A stretch of DNA of 40,029 nucleotides from Enterobacteria phage mEp390. The DNA lies in sequence record NC_019721.1; one strand, written 5' to 3'. The notes under the pieces are model-generated. The model was given only the letters and a program-made list of their open reading frames with translations. It did no database searches and had not been told where the DNA came from. Positions 2,008 to 29,905 of the stretch are shown piece by piece. Every line of letters begins with the position of its first letter. The first letter of the stretch is position 1. Made by a program: the position numbers and the translations under genes.

Positions 2008-3281
2008 TGGAAGAACCTAAATACACGATTGACCTGCGAACCAATAACGGCTGGTGGGCAAGGCTGCAGTCCTGGTTTGTCGGCGGGCGTTTAGTCACCC
2101 CAAATCAGGGCTCACAGACGGGGCCTGTTTCGGCCCACGGACACCTGGGCGATTCATCCATTAACGATGAACGGATACTGCAAATTTCGACGGTTTGGCG
2201 CTGCGTGAGCCTGATTTCAACGCTCACGGCATGCTTACCGCTTGATGTCTTCGAAACCGACCAGAATGACAACCGAAAAAAAGTGGGTTTGAGCAATCCG
2301 CTGGCGCGACTGCTGCGCTACTCACCGAATCAGTACATGACCGCCCAGGAATTCAGAGAGGCCATGACGATGCAGCTCTGTTTCTACGGCAACGCGTATG
2401 CACTGGTGGACCGCAACAGCGCAGGTGACGTGATCAGCCTTCTCCCGCTTCAGTCTGCCAATATGGATGTGAAACTCGTCGGAAAAAAAGTGGTTTATCG
2501 CTATCAACGCGACAGCGAATACGCCGACTTTTCGCAGAGAGAGATTTTTCACCTTAAATGCTTCGGATTCACCGGGCTGGTCGGCCTGTCCCCCATTGCT
2601 TTTGCCTGTAAATCGGCAGGTGTGGCAGTTGCGATGGAGGACCAGCAGCGAGATTTCTTTGCCAACGGCGCCAAGTCTCCGCAAATCCTCTCAACCGGCG
2701 AAAAAGTGCTAACTGAACAGCAGCGCTCGCAGGTCGAAGAGAACTTCAAAGAGATCGCCGGCGGTCCGGTTAAAAAACGCCTCTGGATTCTGGAAGCGGG
2801 CTTTTCCACATCGGCAATTGGCGTAACGCCGCAGGATGCCGAAATGATGGCGTCCCGAAAATTTCAGGTAAGTGAACTGGCGCGATTCTTTGGCGTACCG
2901 CCTCACCTTGTCGGCGACGTCGAGAAATCAACGAGCTGGGGATCGGGCATCGAGCAGCAGAATCTCGGCTTCCTGCAGTACACCCTGCAGCCCTATATCT
3001 CCCGGTGGGAAAACAGCATTCAGCGGTGGCTTATTCCTGCTAAGGATGTTGGCCGCATTCATGCTGAGCACAATCTCGACGGCCTGCTGAGGGGCGATTC
3101 GGCATCCCGCGCTGCCTTTATGAAGGCAATGGGAGAGGCAGGGCTACGCACCATCAACGAAATGCGACGAACGGACAACCTCCCGCCATTGCCGGGTGGC
3201 GATGTGGCAATGCGCCAGTCGCAATACGTGCCGATCACCGATTTAGGAACCAACAAAGAGCCCCGTAATAACGGGGCTTAA
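2004..3281 (+). CDS. portal protein (HK97 family)
   Basis: 425-aa ORF overlapping terminase stop (ATGA); position between terminase and prohead protease. Confidence 0.88.
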   Translation: MMEEPKYTIDLRTNNGWWARLQSWFVGGRLVTPNQGSQTGPVSAHGHLGDSSINDERILQISTVWRCVSLISTLTACLPLDVFETDQNDNRKKVGLSNPLARLLRYSPNQYMTAQEFREAMTMQLCFYGNAYALVDRNSAGDVISLLPLQSANMDVKLVGKKVVYRYQRDSEYADFSQREIFHLKCFGFTGLVGLSPIAFACKSAGVAVAMEDQQRDFFANGAKSPQILSTGEKVLTEQQRSQVEENFKEIAGGPVKKRLWILEAGFSTSAIGVTPQDAEMMASRKFQVSELARFFGVPPHLVGDVEKSTSWGSGIEQQNLGFLQYTLQPYISRWENSIQRWLIPAKDVGRIHAEHNLDGLLRGDSASRAAFMKAMGEAGLRTINEMRRTDNLPPLPGGDVAMRQSQYVPITDLGTNKEPRNNGA

Positions 3282-3978: not shown

Positions 3979-5136
3979 ATGTCTGAACTCGCTCTCATTC
4001 AAAAAGCTATCGAAGAATCCCAGCAGAAAATGTCTCAACTTTTCGATGCGCAGAAAGCAGAAATCGAAAGCACTGGCCAGGTTTCCAAACAGCTGCAGTC
4101 CGACCTGGCAAAAGTGCAGGAAGAACTGACCAAATCCGGTGCGCGTCTCTTCGATCTGGAACAGAAACTGGCTTCCGGTGCTGAAAATCCGGGTGAGAAG
4201 AAATCCTTCTCTGAACGTGCTGCGGAAGAGCTCATCAAGTCATGGGACGGTAAACAGGGCACCTTCGACGCGAAGACGTTTAACAAGTCTCTCGGCAGTG
4301 ACGCTGATTCTGCTGGCTCACTGATCCAGCCGATGCAGATCCCCGGCATCATCATGCCAGGACTGCGCCGTCTGACCATTCGTGACCTGCTGGCGCAGGG
4401 CCGCATCTCCAGCAACGCTCTGGAATACGTCCGTGAAGAGGTGTTTACCAATAACGCCGACGTGGTGGCCGAGAAAGCGCTGAAGCCCGAATCGGATATC
4501 ACCTTCAGTAAGCAAACCGCGAACGTGAAGACGATCGCCCACTGGGTGCAGGCATCGCGTCAGGTTATGGACGATGCGCCAATGCTGCAGTCATACGTCA
4601 ACAACCGCCTCATGTACGGCCTGGCGCTGAAGGAGGAAGGTCAACTGCTGAACGGTGACGGTACCGGGGATAACATCGAAGGTTTGAACAAAGTGGCCAC
4701 CGCTTACGACACCTCGCTGAATGCCACTGGCGACACCCGCGCTGACATTATCGCTCACGCTATTTATCAGGTGACAGAGTCTGAGTTTAGCGCTTCCGGT
4801 ATTGTCCTGAACCCGCGGGACTGGCACAACATCGCGCTGCTGAAAGACAATGAAGGCCGCTATATCTTCGGTGGTCCTCAGGCGTTTACCAGCAACATCA
4901 TGTGGGGCCTGCCAGTGGTTCCGACTAAGGCGCAGGCCGCCGGCACCTTTACGGTGGGCGGTTTCGATATGGCCTCTCAGGTCTGGGATCGCATGAATGC
5001 CACCGTGGAAGTCAGCCGTGACGACCGCGACAACTTCGTGAAAAACATGCTGACCATTCTGTGCGAAGAGCGCCTGGCGCTGGCGCACTATCGCCCGGCG
5101 GCCATCATCAAGGGCACTTTCTCTTCTGGCTCATGA
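3979..5136 (+). CDS. major capsid protein (HK97 fold)
   Basis: 385-aa ORF immediately after protease, followed by a strong intrinsic terminator. Confidence 0.88.
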   Translation: MSELALIQKAIEESQQKMSQLFDAQKAEIESTGQVSKQLQSDLAKVQEELTKSGARLFDLEQKLASGAENPGEKKSFSERAAEELIKSWDGKQGTFDAKTFNKSLGSDADSAGSLIQPMQIPGIIMPGLRRLTIRDLLAQGRISSNALEYVREEVFTNNADVVAEKALKPESDITFSKQTANVKTIAHWVQASRQVMDDAPMLQSYVNNRLMYGLALKEEGQLLNGDGTGDNIEGLNKVATAYDTSLNATGDTRADIIAHAIYQVTESEFSASGIVLNPRDWHNIALLKDNEGRYIFGGPQAFTSNIMWGLPVVPTKAQAAGTFTVGGFDMASQVWDRMNATVEVSRDDRDNFVKNMLTILCEERLALAHYRPAAIIKGTFSSGS

Positions 5137-21663: not shown

Positions 21664-22674
21664 TTACTGCCCCCCAACCACCGGTACTACAGATATTTTG
21701 CGGTTGTATCTTGCAGTCTGCGAAGCATTTTTGTGGCCTGATATTTCTTGTTTCTCATGCAGCGTACCTTCCAAATCAGATATCCCTTTGGCTTTCAGGT
21801 CATGGAAAGTAAAGTCAAATTCGATCTCAGGGAATTTCTCAGCGGCTAACTTTTTCGCCTTCATCCACTGCGCATTAAAAGCATCTCGTGTATATCTCGA
21901 TCCTGATGGCTGGTGAATAACATACATGCTAACCATTCCTTCTTTGAGAGGTAAGGAATCAGCCAAGGAGATTGCACGCCTTAAGCGATCGGTCCATTTT
22001 TTGATTTGACTCACTGCTGTCTTACTTTGCTGAATCATGATTCCTTCATGAAGAAGCTGCGTTTTTTTTAGATCAAGAATATCCCCCTGTCTAGCGCAGC
22101 ATAGATAGGCAACCTCCATAGCGATTTTTACAGGAATAGTTGCAATACTGTACAGAGCATCATATTCGTTATCAAAAACGTAACGAGTCCTGGCCTTTTC
22201 TTTAAACTGCTTTACCCCTTGGCAAGGGTTCATCTTCACTTTTCCACGCTCATATGCCCACCTGAATACCCTCGACATAAACGCTTTTTCTCGGTTCGCC
22301 TGAACTCTGCTCTTAACCCCCCTCTTATCCATATACTTTCTGATGTGCTCCGGCTTAATGTTTTCTGGTTTCATTTTGCCGAAAACGACATTTACCTTTG
22401 AACCATATTTCCGGTAATCCTTTCTGGTTTCTGTTGCCAGATCATGAAAGTCACCAGAGTTAAAAAACTCTTCGCAAAGAGCATGAAAGTTGGAACCAAC
22501 CTTTATATCGTTGATGAAGTTTTCATACGCTGCCCAGACCTGAGACTTTGTGAGATCGAGGTTGCACAATCTCACAGTTCTCCCGTCTGGCGTTCTGAAC
22601 TCATAAGCAGATTTGCCTCGACGCACGCGGGGCGGCATCCAGTTATCTTCTGGGTTTTTGCGGATTCTGGGCAT
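21664..22674 (-). CDS. int: tyrosine-type site-specific integrase
   Basis: 336-aa ORF with C-terminal HxxR and RY catalytic-region motifs (HDLKAKG, ARYNRK); adjacent to att core. Confidence 0.88.
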   Translation of the reverse strand: MPRIRKNPEDNWMPPRVRRGKSAYEFRTPDGRTVRLCNLDLTKSQVWAAYENFINDIKVGSNFHALCEEFFNSGDFHDLATETRKDYRKYGSKVNVVFGKMKPENIKPEHIRKYMDKRGVKSRVQANREKAFMSRVFRWAYERGKVKMNPCQGVKQFKEKARTRYVFDNEYDALYSIATIPVKIAMEVAYLCCARQGDILDLKKTQLLHEGIMIQQSKTAVSQIKKWTDRLRRAISLADSLPLKEGMVSMYVIHQPSGSRYTRDAFNAQWMKAKKLAAEKFPEIEFDFTFHDLKAKGISDLEGTLHEKQEISGHKNASQTARYNRKISVVPVVGGQ

Positions 22675-25664: not shown

Positions 25665-26685
25665 GATCATTTTCCTGCTGCAGTTTGTATTTCTTAACGA
25701 AGTGGGCCACAGCCTTTGACTGGCTAGCGGCAATGGTTTTGTCACCCATGTCCAGCCAAACGGTTTTTCCGCGATACAGTGAGGCCCGACCAATGTCTTT
25801 ACCATCGAGCATCACATACAGAGTTCGTCCGCGAATTTCTGTGGTCGGGACTGGCTGTGACAAGCGATACGTTTCACGCGCTTCCGCAATCGCTTTGTGC
25901 TCATCCATAATTGCCAGCGCTTCAGCAAGGGCAGTTCCTTCAAGAGTGAAAACACCTTCATCACTGATCGTCGCCTGAGCCATCAGCTCAACAAAACGGC
26001 GCGCGTTCTTTACGCTAAGTTCCGGCGCGATAGAACTGCGGGTAACTTTCTTTTTGCCCTGGGCAGCCGCTACAGCCTTATCATGCTGGAGAACTTTTCC
26101 GGCCTGTTCGCCATACTCCATAACGCGATCAACTGCGACGTCTACTGACACCGCACCGGATTTAACTTCCTGCTGAACGTCATGGTTCGCAGTGCTCAGG
26201 AGAAGCAATTTCTCTACCGTGGCCACTGACTTATTGACCAGTTTTGCTATTTCGCTGGTGGTCTGGTTGAACGCGTTATGTAGCTCCTGAATAACTGCGG
26301 CCTGTTCCATATCGGAAAGCGGTAGTTGGTTGTTACTGGTCATGATTCGCGCCAGCCGCTGAACATCGTTACCGTTGAACGGCATGATGTGGATGCGGTC
26401 TACTGGCTTGCCAGCTTCAGCACAGCGCGCATAGCAGCGACGGCGGCGGTGACCTTCGACAACCCATACACCACCTTCATCACGGGCGATAACTTCCAGC
26501 GGTGGAACTGATCCGCCGTTCATCAGGTAGTTAAATAGGTCCTCATCAGCCTGGCGGGTGCGTTCATCATCTTCACGTTTGTTGAAACCTTCACGAACAT
26601 GGATATCGGAAAGGGCGATAAACATCCCGGTATCGGTGCGCTTAATTACACCGGCCTTGGTCATTTGCTTGAATGAGTTAGCCAT
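25651..26685 (-). CDS. ParB-like nuclease domain protein
   Basis: ParB N-terminal signature VVEGHRRRR; start chosen at internal ATG (MANSFKQ) with GAGG RBS (track ORF extends to 26820). Confidence 0.6.
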   Translation of the reverse strand: MANSFKQMTKAGVIKRTDTGMFIALSDIHVREGFNKREDDERTRQADEDLFNYLMNGGSVPPLEVIARDEGGVWVVEGHRRRRCYARCAEAGKPVDRIHIMPFNGNDVQRLARIMTSNNQLPLSDMEQAAVIQELHNAFNQTTSEIAKLVNKSVATVEKLLLLSTANHDVQQEVKSGAVSVDVAVDRVMEYGEQAGKVLQHDKAVAAAQGKKKVTRSSIAPELSVKNARRFVELMAQATISDEGVFTLEGTALAEALAIMDEHKAIAEARETYRLSQPVPTTEIRGRTLYVMLDGKDIGRASLYRGKTVWLDMGDKTIAASQSKAVAHFVKKYKLQQENDHDSQ

Positions 26686-27044
26686 CAGAGAGCAACCTCG
26701 TTCTTCATGGAAATCACCACAGGAGGCAGTTCGCGCAGTTCTCGCTGAGCTTCCAGCAAGTGCATGTTGGTAGGCGTTTTGGTGTGGCGCTCTTCGATGC
26801 GGTCGCACTCTTTGGCCCAACTGGCAACATCCTCACGTAGGGTGGCGTTCTGCTCAGCCAGTTCCTTCCGCTGCGCCATCGCTTCACAGAGCGCGACGCT
26901 GGTAACATCAAGGCGTGTAGCCAGTTCATTAACCATCCAGCCGTAAGCGGCAGGAAGGAGAGAGGCGGCCTTACGAGCTGAGTCGATAAGTTGCTCCCGT
27001 GTCATGCGTGGTTGTAACTCGGTGACGTTCTGTGTGTTCGTCAT
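26685..27044 (-). CDS. hypothetical coiled-coil early protein
   Basis: start chosen at ATG with GGAG RBS (MTNTQNV); stop overlaps next start. Confidence 0.45.
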   Translation of the reverse strand: MTNTQNVTELQPRMTREQLIDSARKAASLLPAAYGWMVNELATRLDVTSVALCEAMAQRKELAEQNATLREDVASWAKECDRIEERHTKTPTNMHLLEAQRELRELPPVVISMKNEVAL

Positions 27045-27870
27045 GGATAGTTTCTCCGTGTTATAAGCGCTCTGCACAGCGCTGATTTTTGGTTGCACGA
27101 ATCCCTCGCCGTTTGGCGACAAAAAATAAAGGGGTTTCGTTTTAGTAAGCACCCAACCAGGGCACTTAGTGAAACGGGCGGCTGCCACCACCAATTAGCT
27201 TCTCCACAATTGGGAGCGCGTTCCCCTGAGTTGATTTAACGACTGAGGCCTCTCAAGGAACTGGCCGAACGCGCTTTCAGTTGTGAAAAGGGGCGGTCGA
27301 CATTAAGGACATTCACAACTGCCGACCGCCAAGACTACACACAGCATCTGGTACAGCTACTACGGTTTACACAACTGGAAGCGCACTCCGTTCGTTTACT
27401 TACCTGTCATCCACAACCGATAGTTGATGGAATGCGCTTTCATGTTGTGTGCCGGTCTTTCCCGGCTGTCAGTTCTTTATTGCCATTTGAACTCATCGGC
27501 CTAACGTGTTTTAACGACCTTTCCCGTTTGCATAATCTTGTCGCGGCGGTTATCGCTGCCGAAGCGCCACTGTCCAGGACATTTATCAGGACCGTCTCCA
27601 AGTGGTAACTCTTCCAGTCCCGCTAAGCACCTGCAGAGATGCTTAGCGTGATTGGCTGATATCCTCGTCTCTTCCGAGGTGTCACACCGTATCGCCACGC
27701 TGGTGAAGCGTCTCTGGCTGTCGTACACAACTGTCTTGCACATTCCGGCTACCCGCTGGATCTGGATACTGAAAGGAATCCACGGACCGCTGCGGCACAT
27801 GTGCCATATACCGTACTGCTTACTACCACACCGGCGCAGGTAAATGTCAGTACCTGTGGCGTGATTTAAA

Positions 27871-27921
27871 TGTAGGATATCTTACTTCATTGTGTCAACA
27901 CTTAAAGTAGGAAAACTTACA
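27871..27921. promoter_or_regulatory. oL operator sites / pL region
   Basis: GTAGGATATCTTAC and GTAGGAAAACTTAC, same family as the three sites upstream of cro. Confidence 0.6.
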
Positions 27922-27930
27922 TTGATAGTG

Positions 27931-27954
27931 AAAAAAAACCGACAAGAATGTCGG
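27931..27954 (-). terminator. intrinsic terminator downstream of cI (minus strand)
   Basis: on minus strand CCGACA-TTCT-TGTCGG followed by T8. Confidence 0.65.
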
Positions 27955-27972
27955 TCTTTAGAAGAGGGGATT

Positions 27973-28629
27973 TTACAGGTCAGTAACTACTTGTTTTACT
28001 ACACCAACAATTTTGCAGTTACCATTTACTTCCATAACACGATAGTTAGGGTTCAGCGGAACAAGATATTTTAATGGCCCATCAATAACAAACTTTTTGA
28101 GAGTTGCCTCAGCAGAACCGACAATTTGAGCGACAACAATTTTTCCATTTACTTCTTGTGGGCTGCCGTAATCGGGGTCCACCACGACGAATGAGCCTTC
28201 CGGGATACTTGGTGCTCCGTTTGGATTTGTCATCGAGTCACCGCGAACACGTAGTGCAAAACCTTCATCTGATAAGCTGGCCGTAGTGAATATCCATTCG
28301 GAAATATCACCTTCAGTTATTGGAGCTCCACTCTCTGTCCATTCCCCAGCCTGTACCCAAGATAGGATAGGGATTTTCTTTACACCAAACTTCTCAGTCG
28401 GCTTATAAAGAATCTCGTCACAGTCTGGATCACCGTGTCCCGTAATTATCCACTGAGGGTTAGTTTTTAAGGCAGCCGCCAGCCCCTGTAGGTTAGAGCC
28501 ACCAGGTTCATAATCACCAGACTCCCATCCTGTAACCGTTACTCGGTTTACGCCTACCAGCTTGGCGAGAACAGCCTGGGTGAGCTTCAGCTCTTTGCGT
28601 CTTGCGCGGATGCGTTCATTCATTTTCAT
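27973..28629 (-). CDS. cI: CI-like repressor (HTH plus S24 autopeptidase domain)
   Basis: 218-aa ORF with XRE-type HTH (LTQAVLAKLVGVNRVTVTGWE) and S24 motifs (GDSM, later Lys); start codon abuts first operator. Confidence 0.88.
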   Translation of the reverse strand: MKMNERIRARRKELKLTQAVLAKLVGVNRVTVTGWESGDYEPGGSNLQGLAAALKTNPQWIITGHGDPDCDEILYKPTEKFGVKKIPILSWVQAGEWTESGAPITEGDISEWIFTTASLSDEGFALRVRGDSMTNPNGAPSIPEGSFVVVDPDYGSPQEVNGKIVVAQIVGSAEATLKKFVIDGPLKYLVPLNPNYRVMEVNGNCKIVGVVKQVVTDL

Positions 28630-28691
28630 GTAGGCAATCCTACCATTTTATGATGTAGGAATCCTTGACCTCTTAATGTAAGATATCCTAC
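28630..28691. promoter_or_regulatory. oR operator sites with pRM/pR
   Basis: three 14-bp sites GTAGGCAATCCTAC, GTAGGAATCCTTGA, GTAAGATATCCTAC spaced about 23-25 bp between divergent cI and cro. Confidence 0.65.
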
Positions 28692-28728
28692 TATCATGAT
28701 GTGTGTTTCCCTTACATTTGAGGCAAAA

Positions 28729-28926
28729 ATGAAAAAAGATGATGTGGTTTCTTACTTCGGCAGCGTGGGGAACGTAGCGAAGGCATTAGGAATTTCCCAT
28801 GCATCGGTTTCTGGGTGGGGTGAAGTAATCCCAAAAGGTAGGGCATTTGAGATTCAGGCACTGACTTCTGAAAAGCTGAAAGTCGATCCATCCCTTTACG
28901 CAAAGCCTAATCAAAACGCTGCTTAA
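28729..28926 (+). CDS. cro: Cro-like HTH regulator
   Basis: 65-aa product from ATG after GAGG RBS (MKKDDVV...), HTH-like VAKALGISHASVSGW; divergent from cI. Confidence 0.65.
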   Translation: MKKDDVVSYFGSVGNVAKALGISHASVSGWGEVIPKGRAFEIQALTSEKLKVDPSLYAKPNQNAA

Positions 28927-28962
28927 TTTTAACTACCAAAGGAAATACAAAGGGGTAGGTGA

Positions 28963-29418
28963 ATGGATTACGAATTTTTTGAGCGACTTGGTAAATCAAT
29001 GCCAGGGTCCGTAGAAATTGACCGAGAAAACTCAACGGTAACGCTTACGGGTTGGAAGTTAGAAAAGTTTGACTATGCCAACAACCAAAAGCAGTGCGCC
29101 GATAGTATCGAAGATCAGCCCAGCGGGTTTAGGACTTCTCCACTTAAAAGTGAAGACACGTTCCCGAAAACAATTCTCTTGGTAAATGGCGGTTTTAAGC
29201 GGGTGGTTAATCCACTCACCAATACCGATTCCCACGCATCCAAGAGCGATAAGACCTGTAGCACCTGCTGGAAATGCGGGGAACATACCAGCGCCAGCAA
29301 GCAAGAAAACGAAAGCTCCGAGAGCAATCAGTACCTTGTACCAGGCATCAAGGGCCAACTTAGAAAGTGGATTTTGCAAGTTCGTAGATTCCTTTTTACG
29401 CCGATAGGCAAATTCTAA
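28963..29418 (+). CDS. hypothetical protein in cII position (low confidence)
   Basis: 151-aa ORF with strong GGGGTAGGTGA RBS and purine-rich first codon positions; C-terminal half low complexity; fully overlapped by an antisense ORF. Confidence 0.35.
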   Translation: MDYEFFERLGKSMPGSVEIDRENSTVTLTGWKLEKFDYANNQKQCADSIEDQPSGFRTSPLKSEDTFPKTILLVNGGFKRVVNPLTNTDSHASKSDKTCSTCWKCGEHTSASKQENESSESNQYLVPGIKGQLRKWILQVRRFLFTPIGKF

Positions 29419-29434
29419 GCGAAGGAAAAACAAC

Positions 29435-29905
29435 ATGGTAGAGCCAAGCCTGAAAGAAGTAGTGAAAACGATGTGCAAAGCGTACCCGGGTGGCCGTGAG
29501 GCTATGGCCGGTGCTCTCGGCATGTCAGTGACGCAGTTCAATAACAACCTGTACGAGAAGAACGGCTGCCGCTTCTTTGAAGTGAACGAGCTGGAAGCGA
29601 TGGAAGACATTTCAAACACGTCTCTCCTGGCTGATTACTTCGCGCAACGTCGCGGCGCTCTGCTGGTGGACGTTCCGCAGTTGGAAGACCTCGATCGCGT
29701 AGACCTGTTTACCCGCGCAATGAGAACTGCAGCAGCACGCGGTCAGGTTGATCAGATTATCCAGAAAGCCCTGGAAGACGGAGTGATTGAGCCGCATGAA
29801 GCCGAAGAGATTAACGAGCATCACCGCCGTCATCTGGCAGCGCGTGAAGAAGAAATACGCGCGATTGTTGCGCTGTTTAGCCGTAAGAAAAGCCCAAAAA
29901 AGTGA
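29435..29905 (+). CDS. phage regulatory protein CII-like (CP76 family)
   Basis: 156-aa ORF, AAGGA RBS; sequence MSVTQFNNNL... resembles CP76-type CII regulators as recalled. Confidence 0.5.
   Translation: MVEPSLKEVVKTMCKAYPGGREAMAGALGMSVTQFNNNLYEKNGCRFFEVNELEAMEDISNTSLLADYFAQRRGALLVDVPQLEDLDRVDLFTRAMRTAAARGQVDQIIQKALEDGVIEPHEAEEINEHHRRHLAAREEEIRAIVALFSRKKSPKK

Follow-up and report, generated by a model that had tools for sequence, protein, structure and literature searches.

The window analysed here is the whole 40,029-nt stretch of Enterobacteria phage mEp390 (NC_019721.1), which looks like the complete genome of a temperate siphophage of about 40 kb. On the plus strand are found the terminase and head-tail genes, with the integrase gene at 21664-22674. 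The immunity region was assigned by Pfam and comprises a LexA-type repressor gene, cI, on the minus strand (27973-28629; Peptidase_S24 and HTH domains), a P22-type Cro gene (28696-28926) and a gene for a CII/CP76 protein (29435-29905). As read from the sequence, the cI transcript ends at a hairpin followed by eight U residues (27933-27960). Just beyond this terminator hairpin, a sigma-70-like promoter on the minus strand (27869-27898) matched 10 of 12 positions in a promoter scan. Its -35 box, TTGACA (27898-27893), is separated by an 18-nt spacer from the -10 box, TACATT, which ends at 27869, and transcription was estimated to start near 27862. The -10 box is overlapped by an operator, GTAGGATATCTTAC (27872-27885, read from the sequence, strand not assigned), of which an inverted copy, GTAAGATATCCTAC, lies between cI and cro (28678-28691). 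The minus-strand promoter at 27898-27869 is pL and is controlled by the repressor. From pL down to position 22175, no other minus-strand promoter-like site was found by the promoter scan. The leftward operon begins with genes for a coiled-coil protein, a ParB-like protein and an Ea22-like protein. The first of these genes (26685-27044, minus strand), which is context and not part of the RNA described below, encodes 119 aa without a Pfam family, and its homologs stand behind the same kind of leader in four other loci (L013, L053, L063 and L082).

Between pL and this first gene lies a gap of about 0.8 kb (27045-27870). An earlier note on this DNA had placed it immediately downstream of pL and had seen no convincing ORF in it, and both observations hold with the promoter, the operator and the immunity genes assigned as above. 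Only short ORFs are present, of 35-99 aa and on both strands, and these could in principle encode one or more small proteins conserved at the protein level, such as a Cys-rich one of 99 aa or one of 53 aa. However, none of the ORFs matches Pfam. The longest, the Cys-rich ORF (27501-27800, minus strand), coincides with a conserved DNA block, but its frame is interrupted in homologous loci by gaps of 1, 2 and 4 nt, most homologs of the region have stops in all three frames, and the reading frame is not conserved among them. Moreover, the substitutions are explained by compensatory base-pair changes, and PGAP annotates nothing in the same gap of NZ_CP074176. Since the indels shift the frame, the homologs carry stops and Pfam gives no match, coding is ruled out, and we regard a small protein as having a negligible chance of being the product of the gap.

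The same comparison of homologs, together with Pfam, gave no conserved ORF between pL and the terminator described below. No arginine-rich N-like ORF was found in the leader by the ORF list and Pfam, as the earlier note had also reported, and the first leftward genes are of other kinds. Neither was any match to boxA (CGCUCUUA / GCUCUUUAACAA) detected anywhere in 27045-27870 with up to 3 mismatches, and ARAGORN found no tRNA or tmRNA in the window, and thus none near the core RNA of mEp390. The best explanation of the gap is an untranslated leader of about 820 nt, belonging to the cI-repressed pL transcript and composed of portable structured-RNA modules.

Structure and strand of the core RNA

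An RNA-based element had been thought plausible for this place, and a conserved structured RNA does dominate the region on the pL-sense strand. This core RNA of 164 nt (27654-27817, minus strand) scores 161 bits (E 1e-49) with R1, the covariance model of its family, and is the only full copy in the window. The R1 search gave exactly one core copy in each of 98 loci. The core appears to belong to an undescribed family of pseudoknotted RNAs of about 165 nt; no description of the family was met in the open literature found by sequence fragment or by topic, so that a prior description elsewhere is possible. Alignments of the core show near-invariant blocks split by variable segments, with indels that are not multiples of three. 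About 50 positions, mostly unpaired, are invariant, and this invariance spans phages of Escherichia, Salmonella, Klebsiella and Enterobacter and one phage recorded on Stenotrophomonas.

Four helices and one pseudoknot carry compensatory changes. Among 77 distinct sequences, standard pairs fill 97.5% of the cells of the proposed structure, against 87.6% in shuffles, and 12 pairs have changes on both sides, while in controls with slid partners pairing reaches only 27-44%. The P1 hairpin (27793-27813) is made of the helix CGGUA/UGCCG (27809-27813 with 27793-27797) and a near-invariant 11-nt loop, UAUGGCACAUG; its pair 9:21 is GC in 55 sequences and AU in 22, and its pair 7:23 is GU in 45 and GC in 27. 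The P2 hairpin (27753-27785) has a variable tip and a helix (27782-27785 with 27753-27756) that is longer in individual sequences, pair 35:90 being UA in 38, CG in 34 and UG in 5; some relatives have an additional hairpin inserted at P2. A conserved joining strand, GUAGCCGGAAUGUGCAAG (27735-27752), follows, of which the CCGGAAUGUGCAAG portion is invariant. Its AUGUGC could pair with GCACAU of the P1 loop (27799-27804), and these six candidate pairs almost never vary. The P4 hairpin (27697-27711; helix 27708-27711 with 27697-27700) forms, together with the pseudoknot, a unit at 27685-27711 in which the loop sequence CACC (27702-27705) pairs with GGUG (27685-27688) in an H-type pseudoknot. In P4, pair 142:154 is CG in 56 sequences and GC in 20, and pair 144:152 is AU in 41, CG in 27 and UG in 8; the first pair of the pseudoknot, 147:167, is CG in 58 and AU in 19. 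Finally, the P5 hairpin, CCUCG-GAAGAGA-CGAGG (27663-27679; helix 27675-27679 with 27663-27667), has a near-invariant purine loop and covaries at pairs 177:187 (CG in 42, GC in 35), 176:188 (UA in 59, CG in 15) and 174:190 (CG in 68, GC in 9).

The core is assigned to the minus strand because of the G.U pairs in P1, which would be A.C on the plus strand, and because promoters abut the minus-sense 5' end; in two loci (L013 and L041) a promoter with an operator directly adjoins this end. The plus strand, whose fold gave a z of -3.07 against -1.54 for the minus strand, was rejected as the functional strand on these two grounds. Other candidates were also set aside. Inspection by eye showed that neither a helix closing the core through its 5' and 3' flanks nor kissing contacts joining the P2 and P5 loops are kept consistently from one subfamily to the next. 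A sigma-54 promoter (TGGCAC-N5-..GC, in the P1 loop) was rejected since the covariation of the flanks is that of an RNA helix and relatives do not keep the -12 element, and an ops/RfaH site at GGGTAGCC was rejected since AACAA takes its place in Kp4865-type members.

Distribution of the core family and its genomic contexts

By BLAST, the block at 27500-27821 is conserved, and mostly unannotated, in 84 phage records. Its carriers are Salmonella Uetakevirus phages (PAT1 and SPN1S), Klebsiella and Enterobacter phages, Stenotrophomonas phage BUCT708, mEp460, cdtI, and Stx2a and Stx2c phages. Related copies of the core occur in more than 120 viral contigs, a scan of viral contigs by exact pattern giving at least 120 loci. 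The commonest core variant is present in 1631 of 5426 complete E. coli genomes (about 30%); among the matches listed none is annotated, and the only feature under a match is an adjacent tRNA-Arg. When one genome per species was scanned, 23 matches came out, nearly all in Enterobacteriaceae, and the family is essentially confined to Enterobacterales. A 39.5-kb circular replicon of Enterobacter asburiae carries a copy 97% identical to that of mEp390 in the same unannotated gap.

The core is found in several kinds of neighborhood. As in mEp390, the block of mEp460, Stx2a_1447 and BUCT708 has the repressor gene on one side and the first leftward gene on the other, and there, as in many contigs, the core comes directly after the repressor gene and on the same strand. 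Epsilon15-like phages carry it between the genes for portal and terminase, transcribed away from the former. A tRNA-Arg(UCU) follows 65-125 nt downstream, on the same strand, in at least 15 of these loci, and the unit is made of RNA only: the core, the tRNA-Arg and two terminators. The gene that comes after this unit seems to have its own promoter and operator, as TATAAT and a second operator copy, TTACC-N5-GGTAA, stand between the terminators and that gene; the idea that no room was left there for a promoter was dropped for the same reason. In loci of the L010 type, the core begins 12 nt after a tRNA-Met(CAU), the last of a tRNA cluster, and lies 84 nt ahead of a DnaB helicase gene. No core copy was found on the pR side by the R1 search.

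The cargo is always downstream of the core and in the same sense, and it varies: early-left genes, Gp49-family and membrane morons, tRNA-Arg or the DnaB helicase gene, the distance from core to cargo ranging from 22 to more than 600 nt. In three loci the core and the protein genes after it are 22-134 nt apart, and no strong terminator separates them (L063, where an ORF begins 22 nt after the core, L024, where there is only a weak terminator candidate of -9.7 kcal/mol, and L010). In most relatives the core is followed, after 220-330 nt, by terminators of up to about -20 kcal/mol. In L082 and L030, a hairpin whose tail is rich in U and a boxA of the rrn type come directly after the core, the boxA being a perfect UGCUCUUUAACAA in L082, where the hairpin also has the appearance of a terminator belonging to an antisense moron. 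A boxA after the core is present in L041 as well.

RNA modules around the core in the mEp390 leader

RNA folding, which the earlier note had proposed as a check, gave several hairpins in the leader that fold better than shuffled sequence (z -2.6 to -4.8). All the modules described here are on the minus strand. At its 5' end, the pL transcript carries a stem-loop (27824-27864) that has an MFE of -16.5 kcal/mol and makes up 79% of the ensemble; L015 and L034 have related 5' flanks (GGUGUGGUAG). Directly downstream of the core, a spacer hairpin, CGCUAAGCAUCU/AGGUGCUUAGCG (27621-27648; MFE -18.8 kcal/mol, z -3.9), shows a change from C-G to U-A in Kp4865. It is followed by a second conserved non-coding module (27500-27620), with about 60 nearly invariant nucleotides (GGGACUGGAAGAGUUACCACUUGGAGACGGUCC..UAAAUGUCCUGGACAGUGGCG), which is kept in PAT1, Kp4865-1, L033, L059, L068, L091, L233 and L236. 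Over the distal part of this module (27451-27533), identity to phages DIBBI and PSKM reaches 94%. A second hairpin resembling P5, UGACAGCCGG-GAAAGA-CCGGC (27451-27471; MFE -11 kcal/mol, z -4.8), gave a partial R1 match (E 0.077), and the purine-loop motif is confined to the sense strand in 12 of the 13 loci checked. Next, two inverted copies of GGAGUGCGCUUCCAGUUGUG make up a long spacer hairpin (27369-27450; MFE -30.7 kcal/mol, z -3.3). In other phages, spacer hairpins of this type precede tRNAs, tRNA-like modules or the core, the degenerate tRNA-like modules being closed by GUUGUGG...CCACAAC.

The module at 27286-27345 consists of the block GCUGUGUGUAGUCUU (27331-27345), an 11-bp terminator hairpin (27292-27330 and flanks) and CCUUUU; its hairpin region folds at -23.7 kcal/mol. 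The 15-mer GCUGUGUGUAGUCUU is unique in the window, with 0 copies expected by chance, and is identical to the invariant block of the Rfam consensus of the sRNA RprA (RF00034). In mEp390 only this terminal module is present, that is, the block and then the terminator; the 5' half of RprA is missing, and the module lies in a phage pL leader and not in a chromosomal gene. Rfam gave no RprA match for the mEp390 copy. The best relative, from BUCT708 (L008), aligns over the whole RprA model with 50.2 bits (E 1.8e-5 in a 501-nt search), which is below the Rfam gathering score of 70 for RF00034. The remaining untranslated leader (27045-27285) contains further hairpins, ends at the start codon of the first gene and has no minus-strand promoter-like site in the promoter scan.

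Two hairpins had been singled out as notable in the earlier note, and both exist, each a few nucleotides away from where it had been placed. The first, GGCGGTCG-N23-CGACCGCC, lies at 27292-27330 instead of 27283-27321 and is the terminator of the RprA-like module. The second, AGCGCT-N6-AGCGCT, lies at 27066-27083 instead of 27068-27085, just upstream of the first leftward gene. Neither of them is the conserved core. Of the element types proposed for this place (N/nut, put-type or small regulatory RNA), the last has a counterpart in the sRNA-like module at 27286-27345; the core is not of the put type, as set out below.

Possible functions of the core

With Rfam 15, no gathering-level match was obtained in the window, nothing was detected in 27654-27817 at E up to 10, and the cores of eight related loci drew no match at E up to 0.01. 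Thus, the core matches no ROOL, GOLLD, C4, IsrK, riboswitch or ribozyme model of Rfam 15.

The put RNAs suppress terminators in cis without phage proteins, in dependence on the beta' zinc-binding domain of RNA polymerase. We compared them with the core by a second covariance model, R2, which was made from 11 put sequences; for this, the sequences of HK022 putL and of the RNA annotated as putL-like in HK639 were inspected and more members were collected. R2 recovers HK022 putL with 96 bits and the divergent putR with 40 bits (E 5e-8). Contrarily, it gave no match at the core in the window or in four related loci (L005, L001, L008 and L009) with filters off and E up to 10, and R1 gave no match in HK022 or HK639. 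As the two models fail reciprocally, the core is not a member of put. The put consensus does not fit the core either, be it the pseudoknot region of stem I (GAACGGCGCG..AAACCAUGCGUCGG) or stem II, whose internal loop GGCGGG / CGGCAAU is missing from it. Furthermore, the core is larger (about 165 against about 72 nt), its P1 is without the 5' strand that forms the put triplex, and, unlike put, it is present in one copy only and is also found outside immunity regions and beside tRNAs.

The likeness between the two lies in their placement and in some of their architecture. Like the core, which begins about 45 nt after the predicted transcription start, put is found shortly after pL in a lambdoid phage without N, ahead of terminators and of leader modules that the two have in common. 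Indeed, a put-headed leader (L145) and a core-headed one (L054) are 92% identical over 130 nt in a tRNA-like module, and the RprA-like terminator occurs about 280 nt after put in L178 and L182. These shared downstream modules make the core and put look like alternative heads of one kind of leader. The commonest variant of core P1, ACGGCG-N7-CAUGCGUCG, recalls ACGGCG-N11-CAUGCGUCG of put, which is a short likeness only, and in both RNAs a hairpin comes after an H-type pseudoknot (put structure, PMC9378689).

We tentatively put first, while thinking it somewhat more likely wrong than right, the reading in which the core is a cis-acting leader RNA that keeps RNA polymerase elongating, by antitermination or anti-polarity, an analog of put and not a relative. 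Transcription from pL would yield the core first, and the core would act on the very transcription complex that had just made it. RNA polymerase would then be kept elongating through the long untranslated leader and its terminator, and the leftward early genes would be expressed without an N protein. An effect of the core on termination and a contact with RNA polymerase are what we infer here; antitermination at this place, which had been suggested before, is plausible from the context. The need for read-through is indicated by the terminator of 11 bp and U4 between the core and the first gene, with no later promoter-like site down to 22175. The core is promoter-proximal ahead of varied cargo, and its constant position upstream of unrelated cargo, in the same sense, fits a function independent of the cargo. 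The lack of an N-like ORF and of boxA in mEp390, the put-like P1 and order of pseudoknot and hairpin, the downstream modules shared with put-headed leaders, and the hairpin and boxA directly after the core in L082 and L030 also belong to this side. Against the cis-acting role count the lack of covariance-model homology to put in either direction, and the single copy per locus with none on the pR side. The core is also optional: among 100 further leaders with the RprA-like terminator, 16 have the core and 2 have put, and L326, L293 and L314 carry nearly the terminator module of mEp390 without a core. In addition, the epsilon15-like unit consists of RNA only and the next gene apparently has its own promoter, and the core that follows a tRNA cluster in loci of the L010 type looks like a stable RNA gene.

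These last contexts would suit another function, that of a stable, processed, trans-acting non-coding RNA, one cistron of a phage RNA operon that also holds tRNAs and the RprA-like sRNA. We regard this as possible but rather doubtful. Such an RNA would be released by tRNA-processing nucleases, would have a cellular partner of its own and would be comparable to ROOL and GOLLD by its context. The company of tRNAs and of the sRNA mimic suggests that the core may be another stable RNA product, same-strand tRNAs being found 12-125 nt away in the epsilon15-like loci (tRNA-Arg(UCU), at least 15 loci) and the L010-type loci (tRNA-Met(CAU)). The spacer hairpins found ahead of tRNAs and tRNA-like modules also border the core, the unit closes with terminators, the core is optional in similar leaders as cargo would be, and a conserved partner is suggested by the roughly 50 positions, mostly unpaired, that stay invariant from phage to phage. 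Processed leader RNAs that control their own operon are known as CI RNA in P4 and c4 RNA in P1. Like these, the core is a structured RNA that an early operon carries in its leader, ahead of terminators, and for which tRNA-type processing is plausible; the Rfam C4 model has no match on the core, although it matches elsewhere in mEp460, on the pR side, and no complementary target sites covarying with the core were found. ROOL and GOLLD are phage RNAs of unknown function near tRNA islands (PMC12286853, PMC5737381), and a GOLLD representative, env-38, is downstream of a tRNA-Met, as is the core in the L010 type (PMC12286853). They share with the core a phage or prophage origin, frequent neighborhood to tRNAs, pseudoknots and many conserved unpaired positions. 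However, ROOL and GOLLD measure about 580 nt and more than 800 nt against 165 nt for the core, which has no Rfam match to them or to others and, unlike them, is essentially restricted to Enterobacterales and usually promoter-proximal. A free stable RNA also agrees poorly with a core that is the first large module in promoter-headed units, with no terminator directly after it, and with the protein genes that follow within 22-134 nt in L063, L024 and L010 with no strong terminator between.

It is improbable that the core, or the P5-type hairpins with GGAAGAG/GGAAAGA loops, serve as a nut-like loading site for a phage or host RNA-binding protein, in which case this protein, and not the RNA alone, would modify elongation or the fate of the RNA. 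The core does occupy the position of nutL in lambda. The boxB loops of lambda are GAAGA/GAAAA, and the 5-bp stems with purine-rich loops, of which there are three in mEp390 and at least four in BUCT708, recall boxB and are on the sense strand in 12 of 13 loci; boxA follows the core in L030, L041 and L082. But most family members have a single such hairpin, the core is far larger than a nut site, the mEp390 leader has neither boxA nor an N-like protein, no conserved ORF lies between pL and the terminator, and there is no second site on the pR side. Slightly more improbable is a ligand-sensing riboswitch, or a self-cleaving or processing ribozyme, that controls or trims the leader: the size, the pseudoknot and the many invariant unpaired nucleotides are typical of such RNAs, and the core can lie between RNA cistrons that need processing, but no expression platform is visible, no U tract comes after P5, the cargo is 22 to more than 600 nt away, no known model matches, and a metabolite sensor is at odds with cargo that is functionally unrelated.

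To our knowledge, put is the single family of RNAs that act as antiterminators by RNA only, and its structure was reportedly solved only in 2022. The core might be a second, unrelated class of RNA that reprograms RNA polymerase independently of protein, or else a free-standing phage RNA with a new, conserved target in the cell, in both cases heading portable non-coding operons that deliver tRNAs and an RprA mimic upon induction; we hold this broader proposal with slightly less confidence than the cis-acting role itself. If a second, unrelated RNA fills the role of put, it shows how generally RNA can reprogram RNA polymerase. Even if the core is no antiterminator, it is a widespread and strongly conserved pseudoknotted RNA without an Rfam family, carried by Shiga-toxin phages, by prophages of Salmonella and Klebsiella and by about 30% of the complete E. 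coli genomes. The seemingly empty space after pL is to be reread as a modular RNA operon made of the core, tRNA or tRNA-like units and an RprA-like sRNA. This RNA operon is the very first product of prophage induction and could tie induction to the sRNA networks of the host.

Folding scores and shared pieces of the leader

When the part of the pL leader at 27440-27870 was folded and compared with shuffled sequences, the plus strand gave a z-score of -3.07 versus -1.54 for the functional minus strand, so that thermodynamic z-scores alone would indicate the wrong strand. Within this part, 83 nt of the leader (27451-27533), including a second hairpin resembling P5, the purine-looped hairpin of the core, share 94% identity with intergenic sequence in two phages, Xanthomonas phage DIBBI (L003, 2504-2587) and Pantoea phage PSKM. 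Both belong to the genus Dibbivirus, are unrelated to mEp390 and carry the names vB_XveM and vB_PagM, which denote myovirus morphology. Such identity between unrelated phages is a sign that a small RNA module has been exchanged recently.

Repeats were also found around the core in related viral loci. In leaders of the BUCT708 type (L008 and L070), at least six sense-strand copies of GGRAAAGACC lie 0-560 nt 3' of the core, some of them within hairpin loops, and these repeats look like a putative binding motif for some factor. In epsilon15-like units, the inverted repeat TTACC-N5-GGTAA covers the promoter -10 and recurs 3' of the second terminator; in L009, L023, L078 and L130 one copy lies in the promoter region that precedes the core and another immediately 5' of the first moron gene. 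The repeat probably serves as an operator for both the RNA unit and the moron next to it.

Known regulatory RNAs and the cro-cII interval

Known leader-type regulatory RNAs are also carried by mEp460 (L005), since Rfam matches to IsrK (67 bits) and to the C4 antisense RNA (84 bits) adjoin each other at 4775-4963 on its pR side, inside the annotated Rha antirepressor gene region. In the window, a weak and non-significant match to RF02891, labelled AgrB by the tool (22 bits, E 0.44), was detected at 27866-27963 on the plus strand. It spans pL in antisense and runs into the cI terminator hairpin, its 5' part aligning as well as the terminator. The 0.5-kb cro-cII interval (28927-29434) contains a plus-strand ORF of 151 aa with a good ribosome-binding site, overlapped by a minus-strand ORF of 186 aa that looks membrane-spanning. 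Neither ORF matched a Pfam family, and neither the core nor put, the HK022-type antiterminator RNA, was found in this interval.

tRNA-like modules

Downstream of the core, mEp460 has a module that resembles a tRNA and is closed by the pairing GUUGUGGUGA...UCACCACAAC; such modules, about 60-135 nt long, are also present in L054, L145 and L178. The upstream neighbour of the module is either the core or put. The closing pair covaries in L145, where GAUUGGAUGA...CAUCCAAUC replaces it, and the version in L070 has a canonical T-arm (CCCGGUUCGAUUCCGGG). These modules may have arisen by decay of tRNAs, or they may constitute an RNA family of their own.

An RprA-like module at the leader end

The 3' end of many lambdoid pL leaders is formed by an invariant RprA block, UGCUGUGUGUAGUCUU, followed by a terminator. 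In mEp390 this RprA-like module occupies 27286-27345 on the minus strand; it was also located at 2343-2462 in BUCT708 and at 3279-3325 in L182, and a scan of viral contigs counted at least 120 loci. Most leaders with the RprA block carry, immediately 3' of the promoter, an element of about 35 nt, ACCACCGAGCCUGAUGUGGUGAAAAGACAGGC (L082, about 3100-3140; also L293, L326, L258, L267 and L315), which is absent from the window. Its loop GCCUG can pair with a downstream CAGGC, and in L267 this pairing covaries to CCCGG/CCGGG; the element looks like a small pseudoknot. To our knowledge, the RprA-like module of phage pL leaders has not been described. That it closes so many of these leaders suggests that the first pL product made by the phages is an RprA mimic.
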